From NCBI GenBank assembly GCA_965285935.1, contig OZ260663.1:50902001-50966000 (forward strand): a DNA stretch of 64,000 nt, read 5' to 3'. The stretch comes from Ophelia neglecta. Taxonomy: Eukaryota. Position numbers and translations under genes: made by a program. Positions 4,764 to 45,800 of the stretch are shown here, in pieces. Within the stretch, counting starts at the first letter, position 1. Every line of letters begins with the position of its first letter. The notes below the pieces were generated by a model. That model did not search any database. It was given only the letters and a program-made list of their open reading frames with translations, and was not told the DNA's origin.

Positions 4764-6850
4764 CTTAATCTCCCACAGAGTCTTGCAGGGGGGTGTATTG
4801 CAAAGTCTCCCGGTCTGCAGAGTTGGACCGGTCTGGATGGTGGGTGTGGGAAGCACCATATTGGGAAGTGCCTCTTCCTCCACAAACCCAAACAGTCTGG
4901 CTCTCCCAGCATGCTGGAACGATTGGCTAATCGTGGGTTGTCGATGATGTTTTCTTTCTAGTCAACACCGTCCTGCGAGGCGGTTCTGCGCTTTCCCCTC
5001 TTTGCAGGTTTCACACTGCGAAACCTCGTACACGAATCCAAGGATGTTTGATCACGCTGTGCTCCCTGAATGGTACCGGGGTCATCCTGGGGTTCTCTGG
5101 CTACAGGTCAGCCGCTGATGTCGATCAAGACTGCGGGGTGATCAAGGAAGCGGATATGTTTTTGATTTCTCTGTCCCTCCTGCATGGTACATCCTGCAGG
5201 TTCTTGAGTCTCTTTTGTCTCTGGTAACGTTACAGTCTGATCTTCCGCGTCCTTTTCTGAAAATAGCTGGATCAATTCGTCTTCCAACCATTCACTCGCC
5301 TGATCGATGGTGTAATGGTCGTCTTTTAACTCTTTTAATGTCTCCGGGATTAAGTTGTGTCTTTTTTTCCTGATTTACAACGGCGTCTCTGTGCCATTTT
5401 GTATTCTACGTTTGTCATGGTGCATGAATTTCTTATGCTTAGGGGTCTCAATTCAATAAATGGTAGGAGGGTGAGGGCTTGCAGAATCTACCAAATATGG
5501 TAAAAACTGGTTGCAATTTGCGGCATATTCCTACTCTGGACGCCTCTTCTCAACATAATACCGGGTGATGTGAAGTTATTGTGTACCTCTGAGGTTTGCA
5601 CACGCCGAGTCGTGGGCCTCCGTCAGTCGTGACTTCAGATGTCTAACCCATTCATCTGACCCTATAGGCTATTAGATTTGCATCAGGTTGATAGGTTGCA
5701 TCATTTGTCTTCCCAGCATCATCATTTCTGGAATAAAGCCCGTGCTTTGGTGTGACATAGAATGCATTTTTATTAGACTTTATCCCTGCTGTAGCACCTA
5801 ATCACTTGTTGTAAAATTCCTCTTGTCCACATGACGGTTGGTAGGGTGTAGTCCGTGTTTTGGCGATCTGCATGGCCGTACAAAAAGCCAGAAATGAGTT
5901 ACTGTTAAAGTTTCGGCCCTGGTCCGTTTGAACCTGACGGGGGCAACCTAGTACCGCCACCATATGTGCCATAAACTTGGATGCAATGACTTCCGCCCTT
6001 TGATCCGGTATAGCTGCGATCTCGATCCATTTGGTGGTGTGGTCCATCATAACAAATGTGCATTTGTTACCACTTTCGCTGGGGTTGAAAGGGCCCAGCA
6101 CATCCAAATGGACCCGCTTCATAGGGAAGCCCCATGAAATCTCTGCCGCCTTTGGTTTCTTGCAAAAAGCACAATTCTCGGACACAAGAGCCGGATGGTA
6201 GTTAGTAATGGCTTGATCTACCCATGCTCCAATTGGCCGTTCCCCGCCTCTCCGGACCTAAATAGGAGTGGTATAGTTGGCGTCCTGACCGCGGTTCCCT
6301 CCCCGTTCCCGCCATGCGTATTTACTTGCAGAGTCCCTAGTCTGGGGTTTTGTGATATTTTCTGGGACTCATTGACCAAGCTTTTTCAACAATTGTTTTT
6401 CTCCCTGCAGCGAATGTTACGGTGGCTTCCCGGGCTCTTTGTCCAGGGAAACATCGGACTTTTGTGTCTTTAGGTCGATGACAGTTTCTTGGCCTAGTTT
6501 AAGTACAGTCTATCCTTATTAGCTGTCGAATATCCGTGACTTGACTCTACTTGAGATGCAATGTGTTGTAAGGTTTTAGGCTTGGGCATCGTCGCCTCCC
6601 TCTCCCTACTGTCTTTCACCCCGTAATCCTCGGGTTTGAATTTCCTTTTTATGCTTCACATTGTCAGGATATTAGCTAATAAAAGGATCCTATAAGGAGT
6701 ATGTGTCATCTACTTGAAGTTGCTATAGAGAAGACCGAACTCCGGAGTTCACACCAGGAAGTTCCGATCTCGCCTAGCCTCAGGATTCTCGGCGGCACCA
6801 GAGAGCGCTCCTATCACAGTACCACCCATATATTATAAATTTAGACCAGT
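4764..6850 (-). mobile_element. Degenerate, internally deleted Ty3/Gypsy LTR-retrotransposon remnant (integrase region)
   Basis: Minus ORF 5802-6185 has CAFC (end of HHCC Zn finger), PMKRVHLDVLGPF, DHTTKW, TDQGRNF and TRTTPYQPS, the retroviral-type integrase core. Downstream on the minus strand are a MHHDK motif (~5415-5430) and a purine-rich tract followed by TGTAA at ~4763. The reading frame is broken, no RT/RNaseH is seen, and paired LTRs were not found, so boundaries are approximate. Confidence 0.8.
5802..6185 (-). pseudogene. Retrotransposon integrase (rve) fragment
   Basis: The first two catalytic Asp motifs (LDVLG, TDQG) are present. The third motif (usually GQVERFNRT) reads GQEEFYNK followed by a stop, i.e. 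disrupted. Confidence 0.85.
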
Positions 6851-12302: not shown

Positions 12303-15300
12303 ATGTCTCATAGCTGGGGATACTGCAAGGTCAATGGTAAGTTTGTTTTTTTGGACACTTTGATTCCTTGAAATTAGAAATAAGAAGCGTTGTAGGCTTA
12401 TGTACTTGTGTATAAACAAGACACTTGAGAGATAAGGAAAATATACACGCTCATTCACACACAACCGTACATCAGTCTTAACGACAAGTAATATATATAT
12501 ATTAGGTATAGTAGCCTTGTTTCTGGCTTTTTCATCGATGCAAAGCGCTAAATTTATTTAATATGCTTGTACTCACCGTATTAAGTTTTCAAGCAATAAA
12601 GTCAAGCAGATATGAAAAAATTATATAAGCCACCTAACAAACCATACCTTTTTCACCACTAGGCCCTGAAACATGGACCGATGTCGCCCCGGCCGCCAAA
12701 GGAACCAGACAAAGTCCTATCGATATCCTGCCCGCTCAAGCTAAGTTTGACAAGAAACTTAAGCTGAGGCCGTTCAACATATCTTATCATCCAGAGAAGT
12801 CCATAAAAATCTTCAACAATGGCCATTCCGTTCAAGTAGCCATTGATAGCCTTGGGTCACGTAAGAAAACAGCTTTTCCCTAATTTGTAGACTTTATGTT
12901 AAATAGTATCTTAACTCTTAAATCATTAACAGCTATTGCAATGCAATACAATAACGTTTTCTATTGTTATATTACTCCACTGCAAATATATGTTTTACAG
13001 ACCCTTATGTATTTATTTCCTGACAAATATGCAATTTTCATATCTCCATAATTGTCTCCGTTAATATTTTTTATTGTGACAGGTCTCGAGGGAGGTCCGC
13101 TGCTTCACAGCTACAAGGCTGCCCAGTTTCACTTTCACTGGGGTAAAACCAGCGACCGTGGGTCGGAGCACCGAATTGGCGGGAAGATGTACGCTGCTGA
13201 GGTACACTTGACACATTTTCTTCTAGTATTAAGACATAATATTTATTACTGTCGACTTGAACTTCAAAGCTTATCATATAGGGGAATATTTAATATAGTT
13301 ATTTTATCAAGTGCAGATAACCTTAAAATGGCAAAGATAATGTATACACGCCATGTCCCTTTTAACGATTAATTAGTTTAGTCTATATCATAGATAATGA
13401 TAATTATCTAGGTATCTATAGATATCTAGATATGAAGTCCTCTAGCTTCCTGCAGCAAATTTTTGTTAAAAGAGTTAAATATTAGCAAGCTAATTGTAGG
13501 TTTGATTTATTTAAAAGATTAACGATATTATGATGGTTAAAATACTAAAGAAACTTTTGAGGCTTCGTGGTATCATCCGTAATGGTTGTCTGTTTCTGAT
13601 TGCTTTAATAATTTTCAGAATTTAAACGTAGCTCTACACATAAGCTCACTTTTTCCTTTCCCCATCCAATCCACCTTTAGGGGCACATCGTTCATTACAA
13701 TTCTGACTTATTCCAAGACGTGGGCGAAGCTGCCCAATCAGAAAATGGTTTGTGTGTGCTGGGATTTTTTCTCAAGGTGAGAACTTTGACCTTTCAGTAA
13801 ATCTGAGTGAAACTAACCTAAACTATTGAATGGAAAAGTACTTTTGCATATATTTTTATCCTCGATCCAAGGGCAATACTATAGCATGTTTAAGTTACAC
13901 TGTTCAAACGACAAAATTGTAGGAGATTATTAAGATATTTGATTTTGCGCGGCGAATGGACGGGGCTTTCGCAGTTTCTATAAGTCTCTGATATTAAGGC
14001 ATGTAGAACTATTAGAATGTTATAAAATATTGATCTACTAATTACAGTGTAACCTGACAATTAGGGACAGCCAAGGGACTGGGATATCTGTCCTCTTTTC
14101 TCAGTTGTCCTTATTTCACAGGTTACTTTACATATAAATATTACAACTGTACTAAAAACAATGTCCTTAATAGTCAGTGTGTCCCTAATTGTCAGGTGTC
14201 CTTTAGGCCAGGTTTTACTGTAATTTTTTTATCAACCACAGAATAAGTATCCCTGAGCATAAAAAGGGCATATGTCTCCAAAAAATAAATCAGAATGATA
14301 GCGAATGAGTTATTCTATCCTTGTCTGGTTACTCGACAGGCAGGTAAAGAGCATCCGGGGTTTGCCAGGCTCGCCGAACTTATACCGAAAATACCAAACG
14401 CTGATGATTCGTTAGAACTGGAAAAGGGCTTTGACCCCGCGTGTCTCTTGCCAGGTAATTACTAACAAATTTTCTCACCAAAGCATCACTGCACTGTGGT
14501 CGTGCAGCATTTGTCAGCATTTGATCTTACTTTGCACATGGACTGCATTGAATTATGCTGAAAAATTGGCACGTCTGTCTTAATGATACATTAACTATGA
14601 AGGTCATTAATACTAATGCCGCCCTTTCATACTACTGAATTGCATTTTCAGATAACATCAGGGACTATTGGACCTACCAAGGGTCACTGACAACCCCACC
14701 ATGTTTCGAGTCTGTAACGTGGGTGGTCTTCAGAGAGCCTATTGAAGTTTCTGAAGAACAGGTGAGGATATACTTGGACAGTTTAAATTCAGTTTTATCA
14801 GCGATTCAATTAATTCACATTAGAATTTTAAGCAAGATACTCAATTTGTAATGCTAAGGTAGATATTGACTTACTTATATAAAATATGTAGGTGCCCAAT
14901 CTTACATCTTAAAACTGTCTCTAAGTCCTAATTAAAACATGTAACTGTTAAAATTCTAATTATTGTTCTGTTAAATAAAAATCAGGGACTTTGATATTTA
15001 GTTTTATTTCGCGGAATCCAGTAAATGCGTACATGCATGAACAGGTCTCTTCGACAATGACATTTAATTTAAAAATTTGACCTGATAACTTGTACCTGTA
15101 ATAATCGCCCTATTCCAAAAATGGTGTCTCCTACACATTCTTTCGACTTTTGCCATCGCGAAGGGGAGAGACGCTTTAGCTCTCGTTTTTTTGTTGTCTG
15201 TAGGACACCCAGACCACATTTAATTCCGTGTGGCCCGATGTTTTTTCCTTAAGTTACATGAGATGGGAGTAAGAGGCAAGCTGTGGAAGTTACTTAGATA

Positions 15301-16668
15301 TTCGTACTTTGAAATGTGTGCTCAGGTGGTTTAAAACGGCGGCAGGTCTAGGGAGTGCGCGTGGATTCTGCTCTTTATTGGGAATAATTTAGGGACTATG
15401 TTCTGTCAAATCTGCTATTTTAAGAATGGGTAGATTTTGACGCTAGATTAGATATTTTGCATTTGGTGGACTTTATTTAGTTGCGCTTTTCTTTATTCAA
15501 TTTTCTTCATTATTTCAACATATATATTTCCACGGGTTGTTTATATTAAGGAATACTTTTTTGTAAAATATTGTCATTATCTGCAATGTTTTTGTATGCT
15601 AAAGCATTCTTGGAATAGAGGAATAAAGATAATAATAATAATGATATAGATGAAGTTGCCCAAATCAATCAGCTCCTCTGCCACAGAGAGATAATTTGTA
15701 GATCAGCCTTACAAGCATGGATATCCTAGCTACTAAAAGAACATGCACTTAATTTTCGCGAGTTCCATTGGACGCGGATCAATTGGCGAAAAAAACATGC
15801 CACCAAATTTAAATGTGGCCTACTCGGTTTCTCCCTAATGGATGTTTAGTTTTTACAATACTAAGCTGCTACTCAATAAAACGCCTCTATTCAGAGACAT
15901 GCACGATATCTGAAAAAATGAGAATGTATCATGACACAGGTTTGTTTGTTTTGAACTACTCGATAAAAAGGAAATAATGGTTATTGGTCTTGGGTCCCTA
16001 TACAAGTATGCCAACGCGACGTTTTAAACACAATGCGCTGTGTTCAATTAAGAACACAAGGGTGTAAATATCCGCCTTATCCACACGCACTTTAATATAT
16101 CCTAGACCTGGGGGGGGGGGGGCATCACAGTTACCATACTGTATATATGGCGTGTACCTGTATGTAAGAGAGCATCAATCATGACAGAAACCGTTTTCTT
16201 TTCGACGAAAATAAACCAATATCAGAATAATCCCTTCCCGAACACATTTCTTTAAACCAAATATAGGCTATAACATTTTTATCAACACTGGTCCGAGTAA
16301 ACCCGTAAGTTACACAAACCTCTACTTCTGTGGTCTGCCGTGATCTGGGGCGGAAAAACAGCACAGCAGTAAATTTGAGCTAAGTCTTTCATGGGCTAAA
16401 AGTTTGGAAATAAAATTTTAAAATTATTTCCAAACATTTCAGTTTTAAATCAAAAGCAATTGAATGCCTCTAGTATTCAAAAGAACAAACATAGATGAGA
16501 TTCTATAATATTATATTTCTGTTTCAGCTGAACCTGCTGAGATCGTTAAAAACTACCCATGCAAGTGACCCGGTACCCGATGACGAGCTGCATGGGGAGA
16601 TGGTAGAGAACTATCGACCTCCACTTCCATTGGGGAACAGGCTACTAAGAGCTTCTTTCCCTAAATAG
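12303..16668 (+). CDS. Cytosolic alpha-carbonic anhydrase, paralog A (CA1/2/7/13-like), 7 coding exons, 270 aa
   Basis: Exons 12303-12336, 12663-12860, 13083-13201, 13681-13776, 14340-14454, 14652-14761, 16528-16668; all GT-AG, phases consistent, 813 nt. Protein MSHSWGYC...RQSPIDI...NNGHSVQV...QFHFHWG...GSEH...AEGHIVH...[13 protein letters not shown]...VTW...[11 protein letters not shown]...SFPK. Zn ligands H94/H96/H119, shuttle H64, E106 and T199 (human CA II numbering) are intact. No signal peptide. Confidence 0.97.
14045..14220. mobile_element. Tc1/mariner-pogo-type MITE in CA-A intron 4
   Basis: TIRs cagtgtaacctg ... caggttttactg, flanked by TA on both sides (14043-14044, 14221-14222); internal gtcct/gtccc repeats. 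Confidence 0.8.
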
Positions 16669-24816: not shown

Positions 24817-27800
24817 ATGGAACATACCTGGGGATACTGCGAGACTAATGGTAAGTGGCGTTTTATATGTGTATACTAGAAAGACCCGTTCGCTTCGCAC
24901 ACTTTCACCCCACTGGGTATCCTCATTTGCTATGTCAGCCCCCCCCCCCCTCATTCTCCCAGCCTTGCCCGCCCTGTAAAATAAAAATGAAAATACCTTA
25001 TAAAATAAGTAACATTATAACAATTTAAACTTCCTGGTCCTCCCTCTAACCGTAGCCCAAATCTCTTTTTGTTCATTTGCTCAGGAATACACGTCGTAAA
25101 GCGCCAGTAATCAGAGAGCGATTATTTGTGGTATAATTATGTGAATATAAGAAGGAAATTACAGCATCAGTAGTCTGCATGGCAAATAACATTTCGTGGA
25201 ATATTTATTTGGCTTTGTACCTAATGGTTTCAAGTATTAAGTGTCCACATAATGCAACTGATGGGCGAAGCTTCTATATACAGTAATTGATTTCACAATT
25301 AATTTCATAACATCAGTAAATCCTGGTCTCTTCTTTCCTTCGACTCCAGGCCCTGACACTTGGCGCAATGTGATCCCGGCTGCCAAAGGAGCAAGACAAA
25401 GTCCCATCAATATCATGCCCTCCCAAGCCAAGTATGACAAGAGATTAAAGTCGAGACAGTTAAAAGTAACCTTTAAACCTGAGAATTCCACAAAAATCTT
25501 CAACAGCGGTCGTTCAGTCCAGGTTGACATTGACGGTGATGGGTCACGTGAGTACTAAACAGATCTAGGCCTATTGGTAACTATTGTGTGCGCCCGAACG
25601 TATATATGAATATACCCAATTTTGAAGATTAAAGTTTGTTTTTCGCTTTATTCTACCGTAATGAAGTATTAAATTTATAAGCCCATCATGTACATATGCC
25701 ATCGCCTAGTCAAAATTTTCGTTATAGATCCGTATTAAAAACCTAACGTACGTGTTTCATCAGCAAATACTTGGCGACAAACAACGGAAGGTAGATACAT
25801 CATGTCCACAAGATAGACCTTTTTTATTTTAGATTCAGACAAAATTTAATGTGCCATACGACTAAGGCCTTTCTTACATTATTACTTAGAATAGTGCTCT
25901 ATAATTTATTTATGTTTAAATTAGATATTGCGCAAAATTCATGACACGTTCTAATGCGCATAACATTGAGGCGCATATATAAGCCTAAACACATGAAAAA
26001 ATACGGATCATAGATATACTAATAGAAATACAGCTATAAAAAACTCTTGATATATCAGTGGTGGAGGTCGTTACCATTGAAGTCCTTGAAACATAAATAA
26101 TGTATTAATTTTTAGCTATAATAATCTCCATTAATTTATTTTTTCTTACAGTTCTGGAGGGTGGTCCGCTCTTACATCAATACAAAGCAGCCCAATTTCA
26201 CTTTCACTGGGGTAAAACCAGTAATCGTGGGTCGGAACACCGGGTTGACGGGAAAATGTATGCTGCGGAGGTAAACTTAATTCTGACCTGTAACAGATAT
26301 GTTAGCATTTGGAATTGATAACACACTGCATGCACTTGGCCTAAAAAGTTCCTGGATGGTAGGCCTATATGGTCGTCGGACTTCCGCATCGACTTCATCG
26401 GCTAATGCCTCATTTAATAGCGCTAGGAGATGTGCTCTCGTACTGGTGAAAATAGTACTTTTTCATAATCGAAATTCGAACCTTCATACTCAGAATTTAA
26501 GACTCAAAACTCGATAATCAAACTTTTATACTCGAATTTCGAGACTTGATAATGATGGTTACACACGTTTCTTCAATCCATTTTAGGGGCACATCGTTCA
26601 TTACAATTCTGATTTATTCCAAGACGTCGCCGAAGCTGCCAATTCAGAAATTGGGCTGTGTGTACTTGGATATTTTCTAAAAGTGAGTCTGTCCTCTTTT
26701 GATTATAATAACCATACAAGACTTAAAAGGCAGGTGGCTATAGATAAAAAATAGAATATCAGAGACGTTCACTCTTATAAAGGTATAGTGTTATCGTATG
26801 ACACGTTAACGAGCGATCTCTCGTCAGGCTGGTAGAGAGCATCCAGGGTTTGCCAGGCTGGTCCATCTGATTCCCAAAATACAAAAAACTGGCGATTCCT
26901 TAACACTTGAAAAGGGGTTCGACCCCGCCTGCTTACTACCAGGTAAGTATAGAGTTTCTTGCATCTTAAGGGGTTTTTCTAGAAATTGTCCTCATGGGTT
27001 TGGGTGTGGGCGGCATTTTTTCATCTTTGCCCCCTCCCGGCTCCCCCTCCGGAATCACTCAGAATGACACGTCCCCAACCCCCGGACACATAGACTAATT
27101 AAACTGCCTACCCCCGGACTACACGCTTCCAGCAGACAAATTTCAAAATTAGCTTTATTCAAATGAGCAGTGACTATTATCAGCATTTCTCTTTTAGGTT
27201 GGCTTAGACTTAAGATCACATTTTAAGTCACCATTGGAATTGAAAAGTACATCTCAATAGACAATATGTCGCAAAGTTATTCCGACGTGAATTGGTGAGA
27301 ATGGCAGTGGATTTCTGGGTCTGATCATTTGCAGGGCAAGAGGGTCTCATCCGGTACATATGTAGCTCCAAGGAAAAACAGAATCTGAAATTTATTCCGG
27401 AGGGGAGATTTTCTTATTGTTAATGAGGATGGAGATCGGCATTATTCGTCGAGGTCCGGAAAGGGTAAGATTCGGATGTAGATTGCCTCACACCCCTCCT
27501 CCCCGAGAACAATCCACACCTCCTCTCTGAGGACAATCCAACCCTCCTCCCTGAGGACAATCCACCCCTCCTCCCCGAGAACAATCTACCCCTCCTCTCT
27601 GAAGACAATCCAACCCTCCTCCCTGAGGACAGTTCAAATTTCCTCCATCCACCCTGAAGACAATCCACCCCTCCTCCCTGATCGAGGACAATCTCAGAAA
27701 AAATCCTGATTAAAACAACACAACATTTCTTAATTCGTCTGAGTTTTATATGACATGTATACATTACTTTAATATGTAATGGATTGAACATGGGACACTG

Positions 27801-28299
27801 ATGTACCTTTTTTGCCCTCCCCAGCTAACACCAGAGACTACTGGACCTATCAGGGTTCGCTGACAACCCCACCTTGTTTGGAGTCCGTCACGTGGGTGGT
27901 CTTTAAAGAGCCCATTGAAGTTTCCGAACAACAGGTATAGGGGAGGATTGTGAAAGTGAAGACTTGCAGCAATGGCCAGCACTTCTCGAGCATATATGAT
28001 TTGTACATTTTACGACATTATAAAATGAAAGGAAGATATATAAAGATAAAGATGCTCATCTTTGAGTTCAGTGATTCAAGTGTAGTTCACTTGTCCAACT
28101 ATATATGTATACAGGCTATATTAATTTATTAAGAAAGAGAATCATTTTATGTTTTCAGCTTAATTCGCTGAGGTCATTGAAGCTTACCCGAGCCAAGGAC
28201 GTTGGGCCCAATATCGAGCAACATGATGAGATAGTAGAAAATTACCGACCGCCACTTCCTCTTGGAAACAGACTACTACGGGCGTCCTTCCCGCAATAA
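24817..28299 (+). CDS. Cytosolic alpha-carbonic anhydrase, paralog B (His64->Arg variant), 7 coding exons, 270 aa
   Basis: Exons 24817-24850, 25350-25547, 26152-26270, 26587-26682, 26828-26942, 27825-27934, 28159-28299; exon lengths identical to CA-A (34/198/119/96/115/110/141). Protein MEHTWGYC...RQSPINI...NSGRSVQV...QFHFHWG...GSEH...AEGHIVH...[13 protein letters not shown]...[11 protein letters not shown]...SFPQ. 63 of 270 residues differ from CA-A by manual count. Confidence 0.97.
26970..27706. mobile_element. Non-autonomous TIR element (Kolobok-like) in CA-B intron 5
   Basis: Left end TTAA|ggggtttttctagaaattgtcctc; right end gaggacaatctcagaaaaaatcc is its imperfect reverse complement. 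The right flank is degenerate (tgattaa). Confidence 0.55.
27491..27694. repeat. 24-bp minisatellite (~8 copies)
   Basis: Unit ~cacccctcctccctgaggacaatc; the first six copies repeat as 2 x 3 variants. It explains the spurious ORFs 27420-27791 and 27488-27691. Confidence 0.9.
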
Positions 28300-30890: not shown

Positions 30891-33800
30891 TCACATACGG
30901 GAATTAGTTATAAATGCCTTAAACTTGGACATGTAATGTAATATTTACGGCCGTCTGTGTTGTTGGCCAAGCACCTGCAGGGACCAGACAGGACCTGGTT
31001 ACCACGGGGGGGGGGGGGGGGGGGGCACTAAATCTGGAAATTGGTACATATGTGCCACCCAGTCTTCAAATTACAGGCGCAAACTCCACAAAATTGCTGA
31101 AAACAGGGGTCGATATTCTACAATTCAGCCAGATATAGGGGTCAAAATTCTATTTTTCAACCAAATATAAGGGTCAAAATTCTACATTTCAATCAAAAGT
31201 CGTACATATGCTAAAAACAGGGGTCGAAATTCTACATGTAGGTTAAAAACAGGGGGTCGAAATTCTACATAGGTCGAAAAAGGGGGGTCGAAACGGCGGC
31301 ACATATGTAATAACCTCGGTATACAGAGTGCCCCCCCCCCCCCCGGCCCACAGGCCAAGGGTTATAGTCCCAAATGATTGGACCTCTTATGGGTGTATTG
31401 TACAGATGGCCACCCTTAGCTCCAAATTGGACCTCTAATGCTGCTAATGGGCCAGATATCGTCACTCTTAAAAATGTTGACTCTGTAACGCCCAATCGTA
31501 CTGTAATATTATGGGATTTTTTCTATACGCAAGCTTCAAGGGGTATGCTGTTACCCAAAGTGTGTTGACTTTGGTGTAAGGTTGGCAGGAGTTTCTCATG
31601 GCAGACTGAATCCAGAACCGCAATATGCATGCCACATGTCAGTAAAATAGAATAATTTAGCATGTATCGTGATTCGTATTGTATTGAGCAAGGCTAAACA
31701 ATATCCATCACTATTGAAAATGACATTTTGCCTAGCTCCCATCTTGCAAGGCATCAATTTTTTCTCAATTTTTATTTAAAAAAGATGCCATTTTCCATTT
31801 TGCATAATGCCATTGATTTCTTAATTTCTATCCCTGTATAGAAGTTGTCACATTAGCCTTTCTACCCCTGCCCTATATTGATCAATAACCTGGGCATGGC
31901 TTGATCGAGGCATGTTTGTTATATATAATATTTGTACTTGTATAAATTAGTGTCCAGTGGTTTCAATACTAGCTGGTAGCCAAATAATTTTGCAACTTAC
32001 TTCCCAACAGTATCTGGCTATTTTTCCCTAAATTATCCTAACATTACATTTCTTTTACAGATTGGGCTAGGGACATTTCCCCTTACATTTATGAAATCTC
32101 CTTCTACTTGAAAGTTATTGAAACCACTGATCATCCATTTTAATGAATGCTTCTTATGCTAGATTGTTTATTGTATTACATGATTATCATAGCATGTACT
32201 TCTCACTACTGGTATCAGAGTTAATTAATTAATTTTCTTTTTAATTAACCCATTGCCCCATTGCATGGACCAGATACCAGAGAATGTAAGATCCAGTTTG
32301 GTGGTTTGCAGTGTCACAAATGTCTAATTAAAATTTCACCTTTCACTTTATTCTTTCCTTTCAAAAACTTTTTGATTTTAGTCAATTATAGGGATCTCTC
32401 TAGGTTTGTTATGATATAGTGTATGTGTGCATCACTCACATTCAAATCAGATAGGTGTCAAGATATTTACTGAGTATGTAGAGTCACAAATGTATTTATG
32501 CGAGTATATTTTATAATTTTTTAACAACAGCTACATGTTGCTGACTCCTAGCGCATGAACACCAGTAGTAGTAGTCTTTTCTCCATGTTAAATAGGCTAC
32601 CTACTTTGTAAAAAGAATCTGCATTAATTATTCAAAATATAAGTCATCTACTTAATTTGTCAAATGAAAAATTGTTTCTGTTTGCTTAGTTTACATATAC
32701 TGGCCAATTCCAGCATTGTCCCACTACAGACTTGTTGTGCGGTGGAAGACACGGATGATAGGAGCTGTTTTGACTAATAAGAATGTTGTTTACATTGATA
32801 ATTTTTTATTCTTTAATAGAAACTTTTTGTGTCCTGTCAATTTTCCCTGTGCACATGATTTCCTTGACAGAGAGCACTAGGAAATTGGTTTCTACACATG
32901 TAAGATATACATGTAAATCTAGTTACTTCACTTTATGTAGATATAACTGTTTAATTTGAAATTCTCCAAGATTCCCATTTCATATTGAAATCAAAGATTT
33001 ATTTTTGAGAGCACAATTTATTGATGTCAATGATGGCCACAAAACACCAGCACACTATCTCATCTCTAGGAATAGATAGGGAAACACCAATCAGATGAAA
33101 AAATTCTTCCGTGTTCTTCCTTTCATCTAGCCGTCCAGAGTTGCTTCTTTATGTTCAAATTCCTGTATTATTAGACCAGTTTGTTAAATTTACTAGTATC
33201 AATGTCAAAGTATAGTTTTTTTCTTCTGCATGACAATTTGACTATGTTTATGACAGCTTTATTCTACCGATAAAGATGTATGATGTTGTCCTACAGATCT
33301 TGTAAATTTTCCTCATGTACCATTTTTACACAATTATTCCTCATGCACCATTTTAACATTTTTTTCCTCATGCACCATTGAAACATCTATCTCTATGCAT
33401 TGTTCCTATAAGAACAAGCTTATACTTTGTATTTAATTCACAGCAAACCATTCTGTTTAATAGACTAGTACTCATTTGTTTAAAATAGGAGGGGGCAGCA
33501 AAGATATGTGCCATGACATGGTCCCAAAACAATGCCAAGCTGGCTGTTTGCACTTATGATAGAGTTGTGGTATTGTATGATGAACAAGGAGAGAGAAGAG
33601 ACAAGTTTGCGACCAAGCCATCTGATGCTAAGGTAATACATGCACTGTACCAAATCATTGAAACGATGGAATTTGTATGTGAAACTTGGCTGCATCTAAG
33701 AATTATTAAAAGCAAATTATTGTATATTTTTTTGCTCAAATTCTATTCAATTACTAAATAATTATTTTTTTTTATTCTTGTACATGTATGCACAATCATA

Positions 33801-36800
33801 AAAAGTGAAATTTATCCATTCTTGCACAAAACACTTGAAAACAGAATGTTAACTGTGCAATATACTTATATTATATGATATTTTGATTTCTAAACAGTAT
33901 GGGAAGAAGAGCTATATGGTCAAAGGGCTTGCCTTTTCTCCAGACTCTACCAAAATTGCAATTGGCCAGACAGACAATATCATCTTTGTGTATAAAATTG
34001 GAGAAGAGTGGTAAGGATATGCTTGTAAACAATTTTTGTGTTCTGATATAGTCATGTTAATGTTGAGCATTTGCATGATGCCATTCTGTAGGTTAAGCTA
34101 TCATATAAATGAATTGAAAGGAATTGCACATTTCAGTGTATCTTGTAGGTGTATACTATGGAAAGTAAAAAATAACTACATTTTTGTATTAATGGAAATT
34201 GAACATACCTAAACTTGTCATTTGGAAGATGTCCTGGCTTTCATGAAACTCTTCCTGTTCACAGGGGTGACAAGAAAACCATTTGTAATAAATTTGTACA
34301 GCAGAGTGCTGTTACATGCCTTATATGGCCACCAGATCAGCAGATAATCTACGGCACAGCAGACGGGAAAGTCAGGATGGCCAACATCAAGACCAACAAG
34401 TCATCAACAATCTATAACACAGACTCCTATGTTGTCTCGGTAACAATGAAGTAGGTCACTCTAGTTTACAGTTAACTATGCCAATGTGTCAACAGTTTGT
34501 TTTCCATAATAATGTACATACACCTTTGCTTGATGGTAAAGTATGTTCACAAGCTAAATTGTGAATTGTTTGTATTTTAGTCCATCTGGGAAAGGAATTT
34601 TATCAGGACATGCTGATGGATCGATTGTGAGATTTTTCTTTGATGACGAGGGCTCTGGAGATTCACAGGTAAAGTGTTTAGTCTCAGTGTTAACCTGAAT
34701 TAATCACTATTATATAATATATATATAAAAAAAAAAATTTAATAATAATATTTTTTCGTGTGAACTAAGGGTTTTCATTGCTGACCACAAATTACTAGTA
34801 GACTTTACGTATATAATTTTTACAATCCATTAAATGTGTAAAGGACAGACACATGTATTATTTATTAACTGATTTTCAGGGCAAACTCTGTGTGCATCCT
34901 TGCCCTCCCTATGCTTTGGCCTGGGCAACCAACTCCATCGTAGCAGGGGGCTGTGACAAGAGGATATTTGCCTACCAGCGAGATGGCCGTATCATGCAGC
35001 AGTTTGATTACAGCCGCGAGGATGACGAACACGAATTCACTACCGCAACTTGCAGTCCTAGTGGCCAGTCTGTTGTTGTGGGCAGTTATGATAGGTAACA
35101 TCGTTTAGAAAATATCTCTAAATAGTTTGCTTTAAGTATATGAAATGTGTCATATATACAAATAAGTGTGGAATCATTTAAGCAATGTAGTGGTAACTTG
35201 TACACTCAAGAAATATCTATAGTACCATATTCCAGCCATTGAGGCCAATGTCAGACAGATAGACTGATTTTAGTATAAAATGGGCATGTCTAGTTAACTT
35301 TTAGGTAAACTAGTCCAATAATAAGGTGGGACATAAGATACCTCAGTCTTGTAAAGAAAGGGTTTGTCTCGCAACCTGATGTTATAATTGTTTTTTAGGT
35401 TAAGAGTGTTTAACTGGAGTCCCCGTAAGGCAATGTGGGATGAGGCCAGAGCCAAGGAGATCTCCAATCTGTACACTATCACCGCACTGGCCTGGAAGAA
35501 AGATGGCTCCCGACTGACTGCTGTATGTCTGCATTCTTTTTGATTCTTTCATTTCTTGACCACATGGTTTAACTGGTATTCCTGTTTTGTGCAAATAACT
35601 AGAACTGATATTTGATTTTATTTCTACAGGGCACTTTGTGTGGTGGTGTGGAGTTGTTTGACTGTTGTCTGCGGAGATCAGTCTACAAGAACAAATTTGA
35701 AATGACTTATGTGGGACTCAGCCAAGTAAGCTATAAGAAATAAGAAAAGTGAATAAAGATTAAATTGCAAAATTCATCCAACTTAAATTTGTCAACTGGA
35801 TAGAAGCTTTACCACTGGAAAGGCAGTTCTATAGTCATCCACATCAAATTTTATGGAAATACCTTAATTATAAGATTTCTATGGAATGTTTTAAATGTTG
35901 TTAACTTTTAAGTATTATCCCTCCTTAAGGCCGGTTAACAGGCCCAAGTGCCATATTTGGAGCTTTCAAACTTTGAATATCCATATTAAGATAATTTCCA
36001 AATGAATAGTCATGGTTTCAGCAGGGCCAAGTATTGCCCATCTTGTATTAGTAGTATTGACGAATGAATCAGATATGTTGCTTATGCATATAATTTATAT
36101 ACCATATTGTTTAACAAGTATTGCGATATGTATAGTATCGGGTAAGAACGGGCTAAACACTATACATTACTACCTTGTATATCATTGTGTGGTTGTGATT
36201 TGTTGTTTAGGTTATAGTGAAGAACCTGTCGACGGGGACCCGTGTGATTCTCAAGTCATTCTACGGCTACGAGATAGACGAGGTGAAGATAATGGGCAAT
36301 GACCGCTACCTGGTGGCCCACACATCTGACACTCTCATGCTGGGCGATCTGCAGTCCACTAAGCTTAGTGAGGTAAACCAACAATAATCAGACTTAGTTT
36401 TCTGGGGGGACTTAGTGGTGATATTAGGAATAGTGTCTGAACGTACATTTGTAATATTTAATGCGTTTGCATCATGCCTCTAAAATATTGATTACTCTGA
36501 AGGAGCATTAAATCAACATCCGAATGATCCAAATTAATTGTGGTATATACCATGTGTTGTGTTTATTTTTTAAATGTATTAATTTTTGTACAATGATTAT
36601 ATATAGCTACATGTACATCAAATTAAAGAAATTGGCTCTATGGTTTAGATGTTCTGGGTGTCTATGCGGTGCATCATTTGTCACATTTAACAATTTGGAC
36701 TCGTCCTTTATTCAGGTTCCATGGCAAGGATCTGGAGGAAATGAGAAATACTACTTTGACAATGAAAGTGTAAGTAGCATCCAGATATTTGGTTTTGTAA

Positions 36801-39800
36801 GTGGTGTACAAACAGATATTTTAGTATATGTACTTGAGCATATCATGTGTTATTTTGGTATTAACCTTGTCATGTTTTATTCCATCTAGGTTTGCATGAT
36901 TTTCAATGCTGGGGAGTTGTCATTAGTAGAGTATGGTGAGAATGAGATCCTTGGTTCAGTCAGGACAGAGTTCATGAACCCTCATCTAATCAGGTAATCA
37001 ACTACTTCTCAGGCAATAACAAATCTCCTAGCACCCCTTGTCGCATGGCTGTGTTAGCTTCTGTGGGTGTACAGGGGTCTGCTGAAATAAAAGAATCTTC
37101 TTGTCTCGCTGAATTACATTTTAATGACCTTGCAAACTTTGGCCTTTAGAGTTAACCTCAAGTATTAATTTTTTTTTATAAGCCCAACCTCAGACCCCAA
37201 CATTAAAAAGGGCCTCCACACAGCCTCGCTTGCCTTGATTTTAACCCTTTTACTCACACGGCTATTATTCAGAAAAAGAAAAGATCTCCTAGCTGCACTA
37301 GCCCCATGGCCGAGTCAGCTATATGGATATAGATATATTATTCATGAAACAGACTTTCAAGGACCAATCAAATACCAAGTGTAATCCACCTAATTAATCA
37401 TAAGACTTATAATGAAGCCTATGATTTTATATGATCATGATCAACATTCTACTCAGGTCATTCCTCTTTCTATGTTGATAACACTTTTTTTCAGTGTGCG
37501 TCTAAATGAGAGAAAGCAGCAAGGTGTCGAGAACAACAAGAAGATGGCCTACCTTATCGACTTGAAAACAATTGCCATCAGTGAGTAGATAAAGAATTGT
37601 ACACCATTGTAAATAAAGTTATTATTTGGAGCTTTTATGATTTACAAGTATAAATAATCTTTTTTGTCTCTGTTGTCATCCGTTTAACCAATATGACAGT
37701 ATGTACAGCAAATAACAGCCAAGGTACAACAATGTCATATGCTGGACTGGAAATTATTAGTGTATATTTTTGTTAACAAATATATGTTATAAATTGCAGT
37801 GGATTTAATGAATGGGATGTCTCCAGGACAGATCAACCATGACTCCAAGATTGACTGGCTAGAGGTAACTCGCCCTGAATCTTTCCTCTTTCTTTTTAAA
37901 TGACCCTGCGCTGAATAATGTAGGGCCAGTCCATCTACAATTCCAAATGCTTAGAAGTGTATTGAAAATTAAAATCCAAGGGTGGTGAGAAAGAAGAAAT
38001 GGTTACCATTTTCTGCTTTTAATTATTATTAAAAGTAACATTTATAACCAGATTAATTTGTAAATTGTCAATAGCTCACTATACCACTTTTCATTTCAGA
38101 TGAATGAGACCGGACACAAGTTGTTGTTTAGAGACAAACGATTGAAGCTCCACCTGTACGACATTGAGACCCAATCCAGAACCACCATTCTCAACTACTG
38201 CTCTTATGTGCAGGTCAGTTTTGTACTATTTTATTTCACAAAAACATGTTTAGTTTTCTGTTTTACAGGCAAGACTGTGTATTAATTATTTAGCCATTGA
38301 CTTCTTTTTATTTCAAGGGAATGTGTCGCATATTTGTGCTTTCACTACTGACAAAGATATGTTCATTTTAGTGGGTACCTGGAAGTGATGTTGTTGTCGC
38401 TCAGAACCGGGGAAATCTCTGTGTTTGGTACAACATAGACACTCCTGAAAGAGTCACCATGTTCCCAATAAAAGTGAGTTCATCATTATTGGGGTCTATA
38501 GCAACATAGATATCATATGGCCCCCAACCAGAATATGGTCAGCTTAGAACTAAGTTTCTGTCACACCAAATTGAACACCTCATTTCCTTATCTCACATTT
38601 TCTATCTTCTGAGACTTCTATTTTTTTTGCTTATATGGCATTGACTGGTGCTTTTTTTATTGTATTTAAAGGGGACCTCACCCACCTTGATGATGGTATG
38701 TCTCATACTACAGCTGTATTTCTGTCCTTGACTTTTATATGTAACTTTCTTTCCTAGGGTGACATTGTTGATCTTGAGAAGGGTAATGGAAAGACTGAGG
38801 TTCTGGTGAATGAGGGGGTTACCACGGTGTCCTACACACTGGATGAGGGTCTCATAGAGTTTGGCACTGCCATTGATGATGGGGATTATGCAAGGTTGGT
38901 CCCATAATAATCTTGTGAACTTTAATACCAGTATGTAAAAAACATTCCTTTTCCTGGAGGGAAAAAAAACAAATAAAATTTAAGATAAAAGTGGATCATG
39001 CTGTAGGTAGTGCTATATATACAGTTATGTAAAAATTATATTTTAGGGCTGTTGCCTTCTTGGAGACACTTGAGATGTCATCTGAGACTGAGGCTATGTG
39101 GAAAACACTCAGCAAACTCTCCCTGGAAGCCCAGCAACTACACATAGCTGAAAGGTAATGTGATATTTAGTATTAGATTCAAGGCATCATGATACTTCAT
39201 AAGAATAGAGGAATATTTTTTATTTTGGATGAAGAATAAGTGCATATATCATGTATTAATAGTCGCAGGGTTGTTCAATATCATGTGATATGGGATTGAA
39301 ATGGTTTACCTCAGAATTGATATTTTGACATTTCAGATGTTTTGCTGCTTTGGGTGATGTTTCCAAGGCACGCTATCTGCATGAAACCAACAAAGTGGCA
39401 GAAGAAGCAGCTAAAACAATGGTAAAATATCTGTCCATTAGAAAGCAATTAGATCAATTATAAGAAGCAGTCATTAAGAACAGATTTGTTAAGTTGTTGA
39501 ATCATTAGAGTATCGATGCATCGTCAACTGCCACTGGGTGAATCCTAGACTTTTTACCAGTTTTTGCTTTGAGGATCATGCAAACCAGTTTGATGATTCT
39601 GAAGAACATGCACTGCAAAAAACAAAGTTTAGATGTTTCCACAATAATGTCTAAACATTGCATATGGCCGTGTGTATTCTTCAGAATCAACTTGGGTCCG
39701 TGCGTACTCCTCTATTAAAGTTGAATCTCTTGAAAGGTCCATGTTTGACCCGGTGTGTTCCTGTTGGCTGGTGGTGTGTATCAACTGTGTATTTATTACT

Positions 39801-42800
39801 GTTGTCCCTTCTGCCAGGGAGGAGATGGATTTAACCACTACAAAGTAAGGGCTCGTATGGCGATCATGGACAAGAACTTCAAACTGGCCGAAAGTATCTA
39901 TCTGGAGCAGAACAATATCGACGAGGCCATGGAGATGTACCAGGAGATGCACAAGTGGGATGATGCTATTGACGTAGCAGAAGCAAAGGTAAAATTGAAG
40001 CTGGAGTCCCCGTAAATTAAATAAGTTTAAATTGCTTGATGAAAATTTGATGTATGGACCACATGATGATGACTATCCTGTTTCCAGGGTCATCCTGAAT
40101 TGGAGAACCTGCGGCGGAATTACTACCAATGGCTGATGGACACACACCAGGAGGGCAGAGCAGGAGAGCTGAAGGAGGAGGAAGGAGACTACAACGCTGC
40201 TATTAACCTGTACATGAAGGCTGGGATGCCTGCCCGCGCCGCTCGCACCGTCACCCAACATGAGGTGAGCTGGCACAGGAGGCCTGCTGGATGGCTTTAC
40301 CACTGACATCTTAGTTTTAAATGGAGGAGGCATAGCGCTATGCCTTGCATAGTTACGACTTTATGTTATAGTGGTCCCTGTCACCCTTATATCCAAAGAA
40401 AAGTGGCCCTACGTTGCAGGTGGCCCTTCATCGGAGGTACTTTGATATGGAAAAGATAGGACATGGGAATTCAAAAAACTGTCCTGCCATTGCAGGTGGC
40501 CCTTCATTGGAGGGGCCCATCATCGCAGGGACCACTGTATATGGAGAAATAAATGAATTGTGCATGCATGAATAGTCTGGTATTGCATCTTGTCTAATAA
40601 CCCATTTGAATTGGTTTCTCTGCAGGAATTGATGAACAACTCTGACCTGGTAAATAGGATTGCCTCATCACTGATCAAAGGAGAGATGTTTGAGAGAGCT
40701 GGCGACTTGTATGAGAAGATCAGAATGTACTCAGAGGCCTTGAAGTGTTACAAGAAAGGAAACAACTATAAGAGAGGTTCATTATTGTTCTTTTGCAAAA
40801 TGAAACATATACATGTATGACTTTAATGTGCTTTTTATTACAGAGTTATAATATCTGTAGACCTGTGTGATATGTTATAAGATTCAAACAAAGTTAAATG
40901 GGGCTGCCAATATGTGATTTTATGACTGGGCCATAAGTAATATGTGATGCTTAGTACATGTTCTAGTATGTCCCCATATTATAATTTGAACATTTTCTTT
41001 TGATTTTAATATTTACCAGCACCTTGCACCTGCACATTTATATAGTATGTGTTCTAATGTTTGAAACGAGTCTATAACCTGTACTGGGACCAGTCATTGT
41101 TCAGTACTTAACAAGTTTCCCAGATAGATAACCTTTGTTTTTCAGTGGTGCATTTTTTCCTTAACCAGTACAATAAATTCACTTTTTAAATGAATTTAAT
41201 TTTAATGGAATATGCATACATGTACAAGTAGAAGTATTTAATGTCTGTCTGCTGCACAGGTGTGGAGCTGGCACGTTACGCCTTCCCACAGGATGTTGTG
41301 GTGTTGGAGGAGCAGTGGGGAGACTACCTGGTGGGCCAGAAACAACTGGATGCTGCTATCAACCACTTCATTGAAGCTGGGTAGGTGGAAAATTCACTCA
41401 GCTTATGAAAATAAACTGGACACAAGAGGCCTCCTCATCTCTATAGCATTAACTCTAAAATGCTTGTTTTGTAACATTGAATGATAAAATGTGACTTCTT
41501 TTCCATTATTTTCCTTTTATTTTCCTTTATTGCTGTGCACTATTCTCAATATCCTTTCATTTTGTTCTCTTTGAAGCATCCATATAAAGCACACTATACC
41601 AGTATGTTTCTGTCTCCTAAATAATTACACTATTATTATCTTGTTTTCCTACTTATTCCTTTATGTAGTTTAAGCAACACAGCCTGACATTATTACCCTC
41701 AAAAGCATGATTTTATATTAGGGCTATTCAATTTTTAATATGGGCAGATGGGTGGAACTCTTTTTTGACACCCCCCTCCTCCAGGGACTGGCACGATTCC
41801 GAGGTGACGATTTCGATTGCGATTTCGATTTCGAAAATCGTGGAATCGGATGATTTCGATTCTTTTAGATTTCATAGATCGGCGATTTCAATTACGATTT
41901 CGATTCCACCACAACGATTTCGATTACGATTTCGATTGCACAACAATATAGTGACAACAGATCCTCGACAATACCCGAGACTGGGCGATTGCAATTGTGC
42001 CATTGTCACCCAACTGAAGCACACATGTCAAAGGGAATTCCCCCACACATGAAAGCGTGATGTCATTTCAAGTAGTGTACACTACAATGTGAGGGCAAAT
42101 GGCGGCGGCAAAACCATCATGGCGGCCGGCGTAATACTAACATGTTCGTCCTTTTGGCCCGTGATTCCTTCGTATTCGGCGTAAATGAACTAAACTTCTT
42201 AGCATAAAAGATATTTTTAGGTAATTGGGTCGAATTTGCACCGGTGGACTGGCCGATAAGACGGGAATTTAGTATAGTAGAGTGGATAATCTGTTGAAAT
42301 CGCACTTGAATGCGTTTGGAATCGTCTGCTGTGGTGATTTCAGATGGACGATTTCGAATACGATTTCGATTTCAGTGACGATTTCAGATGGACGATTTCG
42401 ATTTCGATTTCGATTGTGGAAAAACGATTTCATTTCGATTACGATTTCGATTTCAAATCGAAATCGTGCCGGTCCCTGCCCTCCTCCCTTGTGGCAATTT
42501 TCCTTTTACCTCTGCACCATAGGTCACACAAATTATAGTATTTGTGTCTTATTTAATTTCAGAGCCACAATGAAAGCAGTGGATGCAGCCATCAATTCTC
42601 GCCAGTGGGACAAGGCAGTACAGATACTGTCCGTGATCAGGGACAACCCCGCAGCGAACAAATACTACAGAAAGATAGCCCAGCACTACTCCAATGTGGG
42701 AGAATACGAGCTCGCCGAGAGATTCTTCATCGAGGCTGACTGCACCAAAGATGCCATAGACATGTATAATGTGGCTGGTAGGTAGCCTTGAAGGAATAAT

Positions 42801-45800
42801 AAAACCTTCTTATTTTATTTTTAGCACTTTTATTTCTTCCTTGGTTGTGCTTTTTTGCAAAGAAAAGATGGGACAAACGGTGATACGAATATCAATAAAG
42901 CTGCCTTGTTTTTTATAGGAAAATGGGAGGAAGCTCACAGGTTGGCTTCTCGCTGTATGAAGTCTGAGGAGGTGGCAGTGTTGTATGTCAAACAGGCTCA
43001 AACCTTGGAATCTCAAGCAAGGTCAGTTGACAAGGACAACTTTCCATTAATTGCTGGAATTTTCCAAACTTTGGGTTTTTGTGGCAAATTCCAAGATGGG
43101 TGATCTGACAGTGATTTTGCCATGGTTGTAACCTAATTGTTGTAAGATAATAACAGTCAGTTTGAAAGGCCATACAATTAATAAAATGTTTTTCTGACAT
43201 CACCTTCAAACCATAAATTTCCTACCTACTCTATTACTTGTTTTGATTTTTAAAAAATTAACACCAGGCCCTCATGAGTTAAAAGGCAGTGTAGTAAAAA
43301 TGTCTAAATAATGGTGATAAAGAGAAAATCGGCCAAAGTGATGTCGGATCAATAGGTCAGGACACCTCGACTACTTGGTGAAATGTTCAAATAACATTCT
43401 TGATTTTATACTGTTGTGTTATAAAAGTGAATCACACCGATGTATGATTTTCATTGGATATTTATTGGGCCTTTGATGTACCAGGTACAAGGATGCTGAG
43501 AGGCTGTACATCACTGTAGAAGAGCCTGACATGGCCATCACCATGTACAAACGTCTCAAGATGTACAGCGATATGATCAGACTGGTTAAACAATTCCACA
43601 AAGACCTTGTACCTGACACACACCTCCATTTGGCAAAAGTAAGCAACAACTTATTTTTTTGCCAGCTAAACATTTTTGCATTGCCTTTTTTAAAAATCAT
43701 GTGTGAAAGAGAAAGAGACTGCAAGTGAATTGTAATTTGTTCAACAGGAACTGGAGGCTGAGGGGAACATGCGCCAAGCAGAACACCACTATCTAGAGGC
43801 TAAGGACTGGAAGGCAGCAGTCAACATGTACCGCGGCAATGAGATGTGGGAAGAGGCATATCGTGTGGCAAAAGCACATGGCGGAGCCACTGCTGCCAAA
43901 CAGGTGGCTTATCTCTGGGCCAAAAGTCTGGGTGGAGATTCAGCTGTCAAACTTCTTACCAAGTTTGGTCTGCTTGAAGCTGCTATTGAATATGCTGCAG
44001 AAAATTGGTGAGAATTAGTTTTAACGATACAAACAAAAGTATTGGTCTCTTTCAAAGCACTGCTCTATACTGGCTGTTTTATTTATGATTACCGGTATAT
44101 TAATTTTGGTACAATACTGGATCATTTGACTTAATCTACTATTGTTGTATTATATTGTGTATTACATTTTTGAGGAAAAGAACAACCTATGCTTGATTTG
44201 GAATCACTAATTTTATTCTGTTTTGTTCCAGTGCATTTGATTTTGCTTTCGATCTTGCTAAGACATCTATGAAGAACAAAATGCCAGAAATTCATCTGAA
44301 GTATGCTATGTTTCTGGAGGATGAGGGTAAATTCAAAGAAGCTGAAGCTGAATTCATTAAAGCTGGCAAACCTAAAGAAGCTGTACTTATGTGAGTAGTT
44401 ATGAATCTTTATTTTCACTACAACTGAAATTGACTGACAGAATTTTTTTTTTTACTGAGATATGGATAACATTTTTTTTTGCTTCTCTGCTCTTTTAGGT
44501 ATGTTCACAGCCAGGACTGGGATGCGGCACAACGTGTGGCAGAAGAACACGACCCCGATTCTGTTGGTGATGTCCTCGTTGGCCAAGCTCGCTATGCATT
44601 TGAGGAGAAAGAATACCAGAAAGCAGAGGCCTTTCTCCTTCGTGCTCAGCGCCCGGAGCTGGCTGTCAAATACTACAGGGAAGCTGGAATGTGGCAGGAT
44701 GCACTGAGGGTGTGCAAGGATTATGTGCCTCACAAATTACAACAACTGCAGGATGAATATGACAAAGAGATGACAAGCAGGTCCACAAGGTAAGCTGCAA
44801 AGTGGAGAAACAAAACATTGACGCTTTTTTCGAAATTTATTATTAATTCAGACTACATTATTCTTTTTGCTTTGTTGCAGAGGAGCGGAAACCTTGATCA
44901 ACCAGGCTCGGGAGTGGGAGACCTCTGGAGAGTATGTCCGTGCTGTGGAGTGCTATGTCAAAGTGACAGAAACTGTGACTTCAGATGTCAGAATCCTGGA
45001 AAAGTGCTGGATTAAGGTTTGTCTCCTTTTTTTTATATCAATATAAATATAGCATATATAGTTTATAAGGTTGGTCTACTTATTGTCTTGATTAAGAAAG
45101 GCCCTTTGAGAGTAAGATGAATGAACCGACAGTTAGAATTAAGTCTCAATGCACATGTTTAGATTGAACCAAAACTCAATATTCAGCAGCATAGCTAATG
45201 TGTATTTCAGGCGGCTGACTTGGCTTTGAAGTTTCTATCACAAGACAAAGCTGCTAAAGTGGTGGAGCTTGTTGGTCCAAGACTTATAGAACACAAGAAA
45301 TTCATTCCGGTGAGTATGTGAAGGCAACTGACGATCCACAATGTACATGTGTGCCTACTTTTTTTGGCTAGTTTGCAAAATATAGTATGCTTTTATTAAT
45401 TAACCTCAGTTTGTGTAATACTCCCTTAAATGTAACATGATAGAAAACAAAGGAAAGCTGCCAAAGAAATTTTTATGTGTTAATACTGAGTTAAAGTTGC
45501 TGCTTATATTCCAGGCTGCTGAGATGTATCTTCAGGTTGATATGATCAAGGAAGCCATTGATGCCTTTATTGTTGGAGAAGAGTGGAACAAAGCAAAGAA
45601 AGTGGCCAAGGAACTTGAACCAAGGTAAAGGTCAACCAGACTGCATCTACAAACAGCAAAATCATATTTTCACATAAAATTATTAAATTGTATAAAAATT
45701 TCTCTACTAAAAAATGTGCACAGTGATAGTTAATTTATTTGTTAGACAGTATATTACAAGTATCAGTGTACATCTCGGAAAACTAAGGAATATTGAAAGA

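Follow-up and report, generated by a model that had tools for sequence, protein, structure and literature searches.

A tandemly duplicated alpha-carbonic anhydrase with arginine at the proton-shuttle position: a probable buffer-dependent enzyme

CA-B, the downstream member of a tandem pair of alpha-carbonic anhydrase (CA) genes, encodes Arg in place of the proton-shuttle residue His64 and Ser in place of Asn62, and its zinc site is intact. The pair lies in a 64-kb stretch of DNA, analysed as a whole and called the window, and the upstream member, CA-A, has His64 and Asn62. CA-B is probably a working cytosolic alpha-CA that depends on buffer to carry off its protons, the loss of the shuttle having been tolerated after tandem duplication (probability about 0.65).

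The usual route of proton release leads along ordered water to His64. At cell pH, Arg remains protonated and neither takes nor gives a proton. CA-B would have arisen by local tandem duplication, probably in an annelid, and would bind zinc via H94, H96 and H119 and hydrate CO2 by the usual zinc-hydroxide step, because every residue required for this half of the reaction is kept. The intramolecular shuttle would be gone and, because Arg is permanently protonated, the proton from zinc-bound water would have to pass through water to buffer molecules. Judging from CA II mutants, kcat of CA-B would be several- to more than 10-fold lower than that of CA-A in weak buffer, imidazole-type or cytosolic buffers would largely restore it, and kcat/KM would be far less affected. 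Ser62 would contribute a small effect, and the remainder of the protein would be under purifying selection. Weak selection on shuttle speed in these enzymes, together with the His64 kept by CA-A, would explain why Arg64 was tolerated. For CA-B, the residues, the integrity of the gene, the two haplotypes, the direction of the change and its frequency among relatives are observed, whereas we infer activity, rate, cellular location and expression, and by analogy with known isozymes we expect a moderately slower, buffer-dependent enzyme.

Tandem gene pair, shuttle site and catalytic core

The window has the composition of eukaryotic DNA, with a GC content of 0.33-0.43, and the two genes have the following structures (positions are those of the window).

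12303..16668, + strand: CA-A gene, 270-aa product, seven coding exons (12303-12336, 12663-12860, 13083-13201, 13681-13776, 14340-14454, 14652-14761, 16528-16668)
24817..28299, + strand: CA-B gene, 270-aa product, seven coding exons (24817-24850, 25350-25547, 26152-26270, 26587-26682, 26828-26942, 27825-27934, 28159-28299)

The exon lengths are equal in the two genes (34, 198, 119, 96, 115, 110 and 141 bases), all introns are GT..AG, and neither gene contains a frameshift or a premature stop. The CA-B model starts four residues ahead of W5 and ends at 270 aa as CA-A does; a further upstream coding exon is possible. Pfam PF00194 matches the frame of CA-B exon 2 (E = 1.7e-12) and also the frames of CA-A exons 2 and 3, and the top solved-structure matches of CA-B exon 2 are CA II (E about 2e-9). 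The two proteins share 207 of 270 residues (77%), with a dS of 0.84, a dN of 0.15 and a dN/dS of 0.18. Similarity between the loci is confined to exons and exon edges and, together with the dS value, this indicates that the tandem duplication is old. Within the 64-kb window, tblastn detected CA-A and CA-B only and no third carbonic anhydrase gene.

Other features surround the pair. An Integrase core domain (PF00665, E = 5e-12) at 5805-6257 on the - strand represents a retroelement fragment upstream of CA-A. Downstream of the pair, exons at 33489-44790 on the + strand show weak Pfam matches, below cut-off, to WD40 and IFT80/172/140-type TPR domains, and on sequence grounds this region is probably an IFT172-like intraflagellar transport gene. 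A minisatellite with 26 copies of a 29-base unit occupies 48812-49566, and intron 5 of CA-B contains a 24-base tandem repeat of 7.7 copies (27491-27681). The reads point to dispersed repeats around 24873-24920 and around 27180-27675.

The residues that distinguish the two proteins at the shuttle site, and the exons that supply the catalytic core of CA-B, are as follows.

12824..12826, + strand: CA-A His64 codon CAT, in a frame reading NNGHSVQV
25505..25507, + strand: CA-B codon 64 (AGC), encoding Ser at the equivalent of CA II position 62, where CA-A has Asn
25511..25513, + strand: CA-B codon 66 (CGT), encoding Arg at the equivalent of CA II position 64, where CA-A has His
25526..25528, + strand: CA-B codon 71 (GAC), encoding Asp at the equivalent of CA II position 69, where CA-A and the outgroup P0151 have Ala
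26152..26270, + strand: CA-B exon 3, with zinc ligands H94 and H96 and gatekeeper E106
26587..26682, + strand: CA-B exon 4, with zinc ligand H119, V121 and V143
27825..27934, + strand: CA-B exon 6, with L198, T199, T200 and W209

CA II numbering comes from an alignment of CA-B exon 2 with human CA II chains, which gives Ser62, Gly63, Arg64, Ser65, Gln67 and Asp69. An earlier note on this DNA had contrasted NNGHSVQV in CA-A with NSGRSVQV in CA-B and had read the difference as His64Arg plus Asn62Ser; the codons and frames, read again, match exactly, and the alignment to CA II places Arg64 and Ser62 in CA-B. Ala69Asp, close to the cavity rim, is also specific to CA-B and brings the changes on the wall that bears 62 and 64 to three. 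The same note had described the zinc site as intact and E106, T199/T200, W5 and Y7 as retained. Consistently, H94, H96 and H119 are present in CA-B, and W5, Y7, Q92, H94, H96, E106, H119, L198, T199 and T200 are identical in both proteins. CA-B also has the features of the catalytic family, namely gatekeepers E106 and T199 and the CO2 pocket formed by V121, V143, L198, V207 and W209. Among 26 cavity positions, a list not derived from a structure, the paralogues differ at four (62, 64, 69 and 204). A replacement shuttle was not found in CA-B: neither residue 67 nor residue 200 is His, and the surroundings of the cavity have gained none. Beside zinc ligand H119, both genes encode Gly118 (13681-13683 in CA-A and 26587-26589 in CA-B), which is common to CA-A, CA-B, P0151 and P0159; Leu occupies position 118 in 130 homologues among the matches listed.

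The reads came from three public runs of one sample in one study and are possibly the source of the assembly itself. A read contig matches 25346-25512 with no differences and splits at 25513 into T, the base of the window, and G. The second haplotype changes CGT to CGG, which is still Arg, and T>G is the sole listed difference in 25505-25513. Thus Arg64, which was to be checked in reads, is encoded by both contig haplotypes in all three runs, so that for this individual both a sequencing error and a heterozygous His allele are excluded. The silent polymorphism that the codon itself carries implies that Arg was not acquired very recently.

These properties set CA-B apart from several familiar classes. 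With Arg64 on both haplotypes, it lacks the His64 shuttle of the fast CA II-type isozymes. The basic residue at 64 is that of a CA III-type enzyme, but Leu198 and Gln67 rather than Phe198 and Arg67, together with a position outside the vertebrate CA III group in the tree, reject assignment to that slow isozyme. The three zinc histidines reject an acatalytic CARP, and the absence of frame or splice damage and a dN/dS of 0.18, not near 1, reject a pseudogene.

Residues 62 and 64 among homologues and on the CA-B branch

The best 120 of 391 and the best 120 of 562 matches were merged into a set of 172 full-length homologues, which favours near relatives. Among these listed homologues, position 64 is His in 104, Tyr in 25, Ser in 11, Lys in 10, Ala in 9, Leu in 5, Arg in 3 and another residue in 5, and position 62 is Asn in 101, Thr in 46, Pro in 14, Ser in 5 and another residue in 6. 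His64 is therefore missing from 68 of the 172, all of which have the three zinc histidines, and Asn62 from 71, so that the unusual case implied by the earlier note is not borne out. Arg64 is also found in an exon-level search (165 rows from 146 proteins): 11 domain rows are gapped at position 64, and 4 of the other 154 have Arg, all four with Thr62. The exact combination of Ser62 with Arg64 occurs in none of the 172 listed homologues, which counts against the preferred reading of a buffer-dependent enzyme.

A tree of 174 rows was calculated by a quick search under LG+G4 with columns 62-67 removed. CA-A groups with CA-B as its sister (SH-aLRT 99), and P0151 is the row that joins them next (SH-aLRT 98). 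Because this nearest outgroup has Asn62 and His64, both substitutions are derived and belong to the CA-B branch. The pair sits in a 73-row group with annelid proteins (SH-aLRT 91, not starred), and the closest named relatives among the matches listed are those of the annelids Capitella, Hydroides, Helobdella and Lamellibrachia. Among the matches listed, 22 of the 71 proteins in the group with annelids have no His64. When P0003 and P0151 stood in as queries for the spliced proteins, the best listed relative was 69% identical to CA-A and 64% to CA-B, and no close CA-B orthologue was found among the matches listed. A word-index search with exon 2 alone yielded five candidates and no match.

At least 34 switches between His and non-His at position 64 are required on this tree, and the position changed 41 times, against no changes at 13 neighbouring catalytic or structural positions. 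This contrast bears on the weight of the textbook shuttle inside a buffered cell. In a tubeworm cluster with 76-91% identity, position 64 is Arg in P0246, Lys in P0286, His in P0326, Asn in P0327 and His in P0328; the last four proteins are 81-91% identical, and the Arg belongs to their Lamellibrachia sister. Judged from these sequences, switching at the shuttle site is unusually fast in the cluster. Such frequent flips might mean, though with low probability, that residue 64 is a tuning switch in this clade rather than a fixed catalytic requirement.

CA-B has evolved somewhat faster than CA-A but is still constrained. With P0151 as outgroup, 22 lineage-specific changes fall on CA-B and 10 on CA-A, with 30 unpolarised (p = 0.034), and the changes of CA-B fall at more conserved columns than those of CA-A (p = 0.01); four of the 22 go toward the family consensus and may be mis-polarised. 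This excess also fits early decay or adaptation. At columns conserved at 90% or more, CA-B matches 62 of 63 and CA-A 63 of 63, and Tyr53Phe accounts for the sole miss. It lies in exon 2 (25457-25474), away from the cavity, together with Pro48Gln, and both states are rare among the matches listed (4/171 and 1/172, respectively). The read differences at the CA-B locus comprise 85 rows, of which 40 were listed and 39 entered, the second allele at intronic 25880 being omitted. Among the difference rows listed, eight are coding polymorphisms, six silent and two replacement (Leu174Phe and Ala188Val); the silent share of 6/8 compares with a neutral expectation of 24% (p = 0.003), and pN/pS is about 0.10.

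Retuning, neutrality and decay

The earlier note had taken two adjacent changes in the active site as a sign of functional retuning, in which Ser62, Arg64 and, with the third change, Asp69 would have been selected jointly to remodel the hydrophilic wall of the cavity. The three cavity changes specific to CA-B do lie on one wall, CA-A has none, the CA-B branch is the faster one, and the predicted pI shifts from 6.2 to 8.3. Through its fixed positive charge, Arg64 could dock an acidic transporter tail and Asp69 could form a surface proton antenna, or anion or inhibitor binding could be altered. According to the available text of PMC5986270, residue 64 of CA II binds the tail of MCT1/4, H64K keeps this binding, and Glu69 and Asp72 act as a proton antenna; tissue-specific CA paralogues of tubeworms, described in the accessible part of PMC2175520, also fit such a specialization. 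However, changes specific to CA-B affect 3 of 26 cavity positions (62, 64 and 69) and 19 of 242 others, so that enrichment in the cavity is absent (p = 0.46), and the Ser62 effect in human CA XIII (see below) is small. Because the paralogues differ at 25 of 66 residues in exon 2, a second change near 64 is likely anyway. A residue other than Asn62 accompanies a residue other than His64 in 48 of 68 listed homologues, against 23 of 104 with His64, a coupling that is strong in these raw counts; on 20 independent pairs, however, 5.9 go the same way and 1.0 the other way (median p 0.125, not significant), and coupling would also follow if Asn62 were freed once His64 had gone. A link between an acid at 69 and a basic residue at 64 was rejected (2/13 against 39/159 among listed homologues, p = 0.74), column 69, with 65 changes, ranks with the most variable ones, and CA-B has Gly at 72. 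Joint selection is thus rather unlikely. It is at best equally doubtful that CA-B was re-purposed in the specific sense that Arg64 fits into space left by Ser62 and Asp69 contributes an acid at the rim, giving a transporter-docking or antenna surface, with CA-A left as the fast bulk enzyme.

It is also improbable that the swap is neutral, CA-B matching the speed of CA-A in the cell or using another shuttle. CA II H64A, although more than 10-fold slower without buffer, is near wild type in oocytes (available part of PMC3208603), and the rapid replacement of residue 64 among the tubeworm proteins would agree with neutrality. Against this, activity in lysates falls to 23% for H64A and 53% for H64K, and that of H64A in cells is 50% (PMC5986270, as far as its text was available), His64 is still the majority state among listed homologues (104/172), and CA-B lacks the His residues at 67, 200 or near the cavity that another shuttle would need.

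Early decay, in which a redundant CA-B drifts toward loss and Arg64 is among the first deleterious changes, is very unlikely. The 22 changes against 10 and the rare states at conserved columns, including Ala20Ile (1/170 among the matches listed) besides Pro48Gln and Tyr53Phe, would suit it. However, the frame and splice sites are undamaged in a duplicate as old as a dS of 0.84 implies, all invariant catalytic residues are kept, and present-day polymorphism is mostly silent. These observations and the dN/dS agree with the earlier view that CA-B is not decaying. A sequencing error or a rare allele as the source of Arg64 can practically be dismissed for this individual: although the reads come from one sample, Arg stands on both haplotypes in all three runs with differing third bases, one of them a silent polymorphism that an established Arg state would have had time to acquire.

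Comparison with known carbonic anhydrases

It is already known from the accessible parts of the literature that active alpha-CAs without His64 are common in invertebrates, and Arg at this site is in print for CruCA5. What is useful is that two 77%-identical neighbours with 4/26 cavity differences form a clean natural test of Arg64. In a literature search that hardly reached subscription journals, no kinetics were found for any Arg64 enzyme, which makes the pair a tidy test case; neither an H64R enzyme nor a natural Arg64 CA appeared by title among the matches listed. The overall significance is modest.

Slower isozymes without His64 include CA V, which has Tyr64. Mammalian CA III resembles CA-B in having a basic residue at 64 and no His shuttle, and buffer rescue is expected for both; it differs in Arg67 and Phe198 (Tupaia CA3 row; available part of PMC3208603), where CA-B has Gln67 and Leu198. 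Accordingly, the analogy with CA III drawn earlier stands for the basic residue without a shuttle but overstated the degree of slowing, since CA III has Phe198, and CA-B is expected to be much less impaired because of Gln67 and Leu198. At position 62, the available text of PMC6713127 describes cytosolic human CA XIII with natural Ser62 and Ser65; its kcat stays at 1.4-1.5e5 in S62N, and efficiency rises by 30% only. Unlike CA-B, CA XIII keeps His64 and has Val200. A CA2-like protein of the giant clam has Thr at 62 (PMC5727267, available part), and PMC6073313 and PMC6032174 offer general background only, as far as their text was available.

Among annelids, the CA clusters of Riftia (PMC8789280 and PMC2175520, in their accessible parts) are tandem duplicates like this pair, with paralogues that differ in tissue expression, and residue 64 is not taken up there; Riftia is a symbiotic tubeworm, and nothing marks the CA-A/CA-B animal as one. 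The search found nothing on Riftia together with the proton shuttle, and matches for annelid with His64 were unrelated by title. Lamellibrachia satsuma carbonic anhydrase 2 (KAI0241633.1, P0246), P0154 and P0295 share Arg64, intact zinc ligands and the same broad clade with CA-B. However, their Arg64 has separate origins, they are 52-57% identical to CA-A, and position 62 is Asn, Asn and His, respectively, rather than Ser.

The red coral Corallium rubrum lacks His64 in four of six CAs, and its most abundantly expressed CA, CruCA5, combines Arg at the shuttle position with three zinc histidines (PMC4981384, available text). CruCA5 is thus an alpha-CA like CA-B, although it is membrane-bound and cnidarian, and no tandem twin with His64 is described in that text. 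CruCA4, also without His64, reaches 2.4e5 per second and is amine-activated (PMC6017236); its residue 64 is Ser in PMC4981384 and Lys in PMC6017236, so that the accessible parts of the two papers disagree. Those enzymes without His64 for which the sources at hand give rates carry Lys (or Ser), not the bulkier Arg, which counts against the buffer-dependent reading of CA-B. A mussel CA with Lys64 has a kcat of 4.1e5 per second (PMC6010126, available part). Both rates fall in the range of human CA I, and because the mussel enzyme outpaces human CA I, which bears His64, residue 64 alone does not set the rate. From genus, a length of 255 aa and Lys64, the mussel enzyme is inferred to be that of the Mytilus cytosolic-type cluster P0299, in which Thr62 and Lys64 occur in 10 of 10 members. 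Like CA-B, this cluster has changed both 62 and 64 and kept Leu198; unlike CA-B, it is molluscan, carries Lys instead of Arg, and has the change fixed across a genus rather than in one of a tandem pair.
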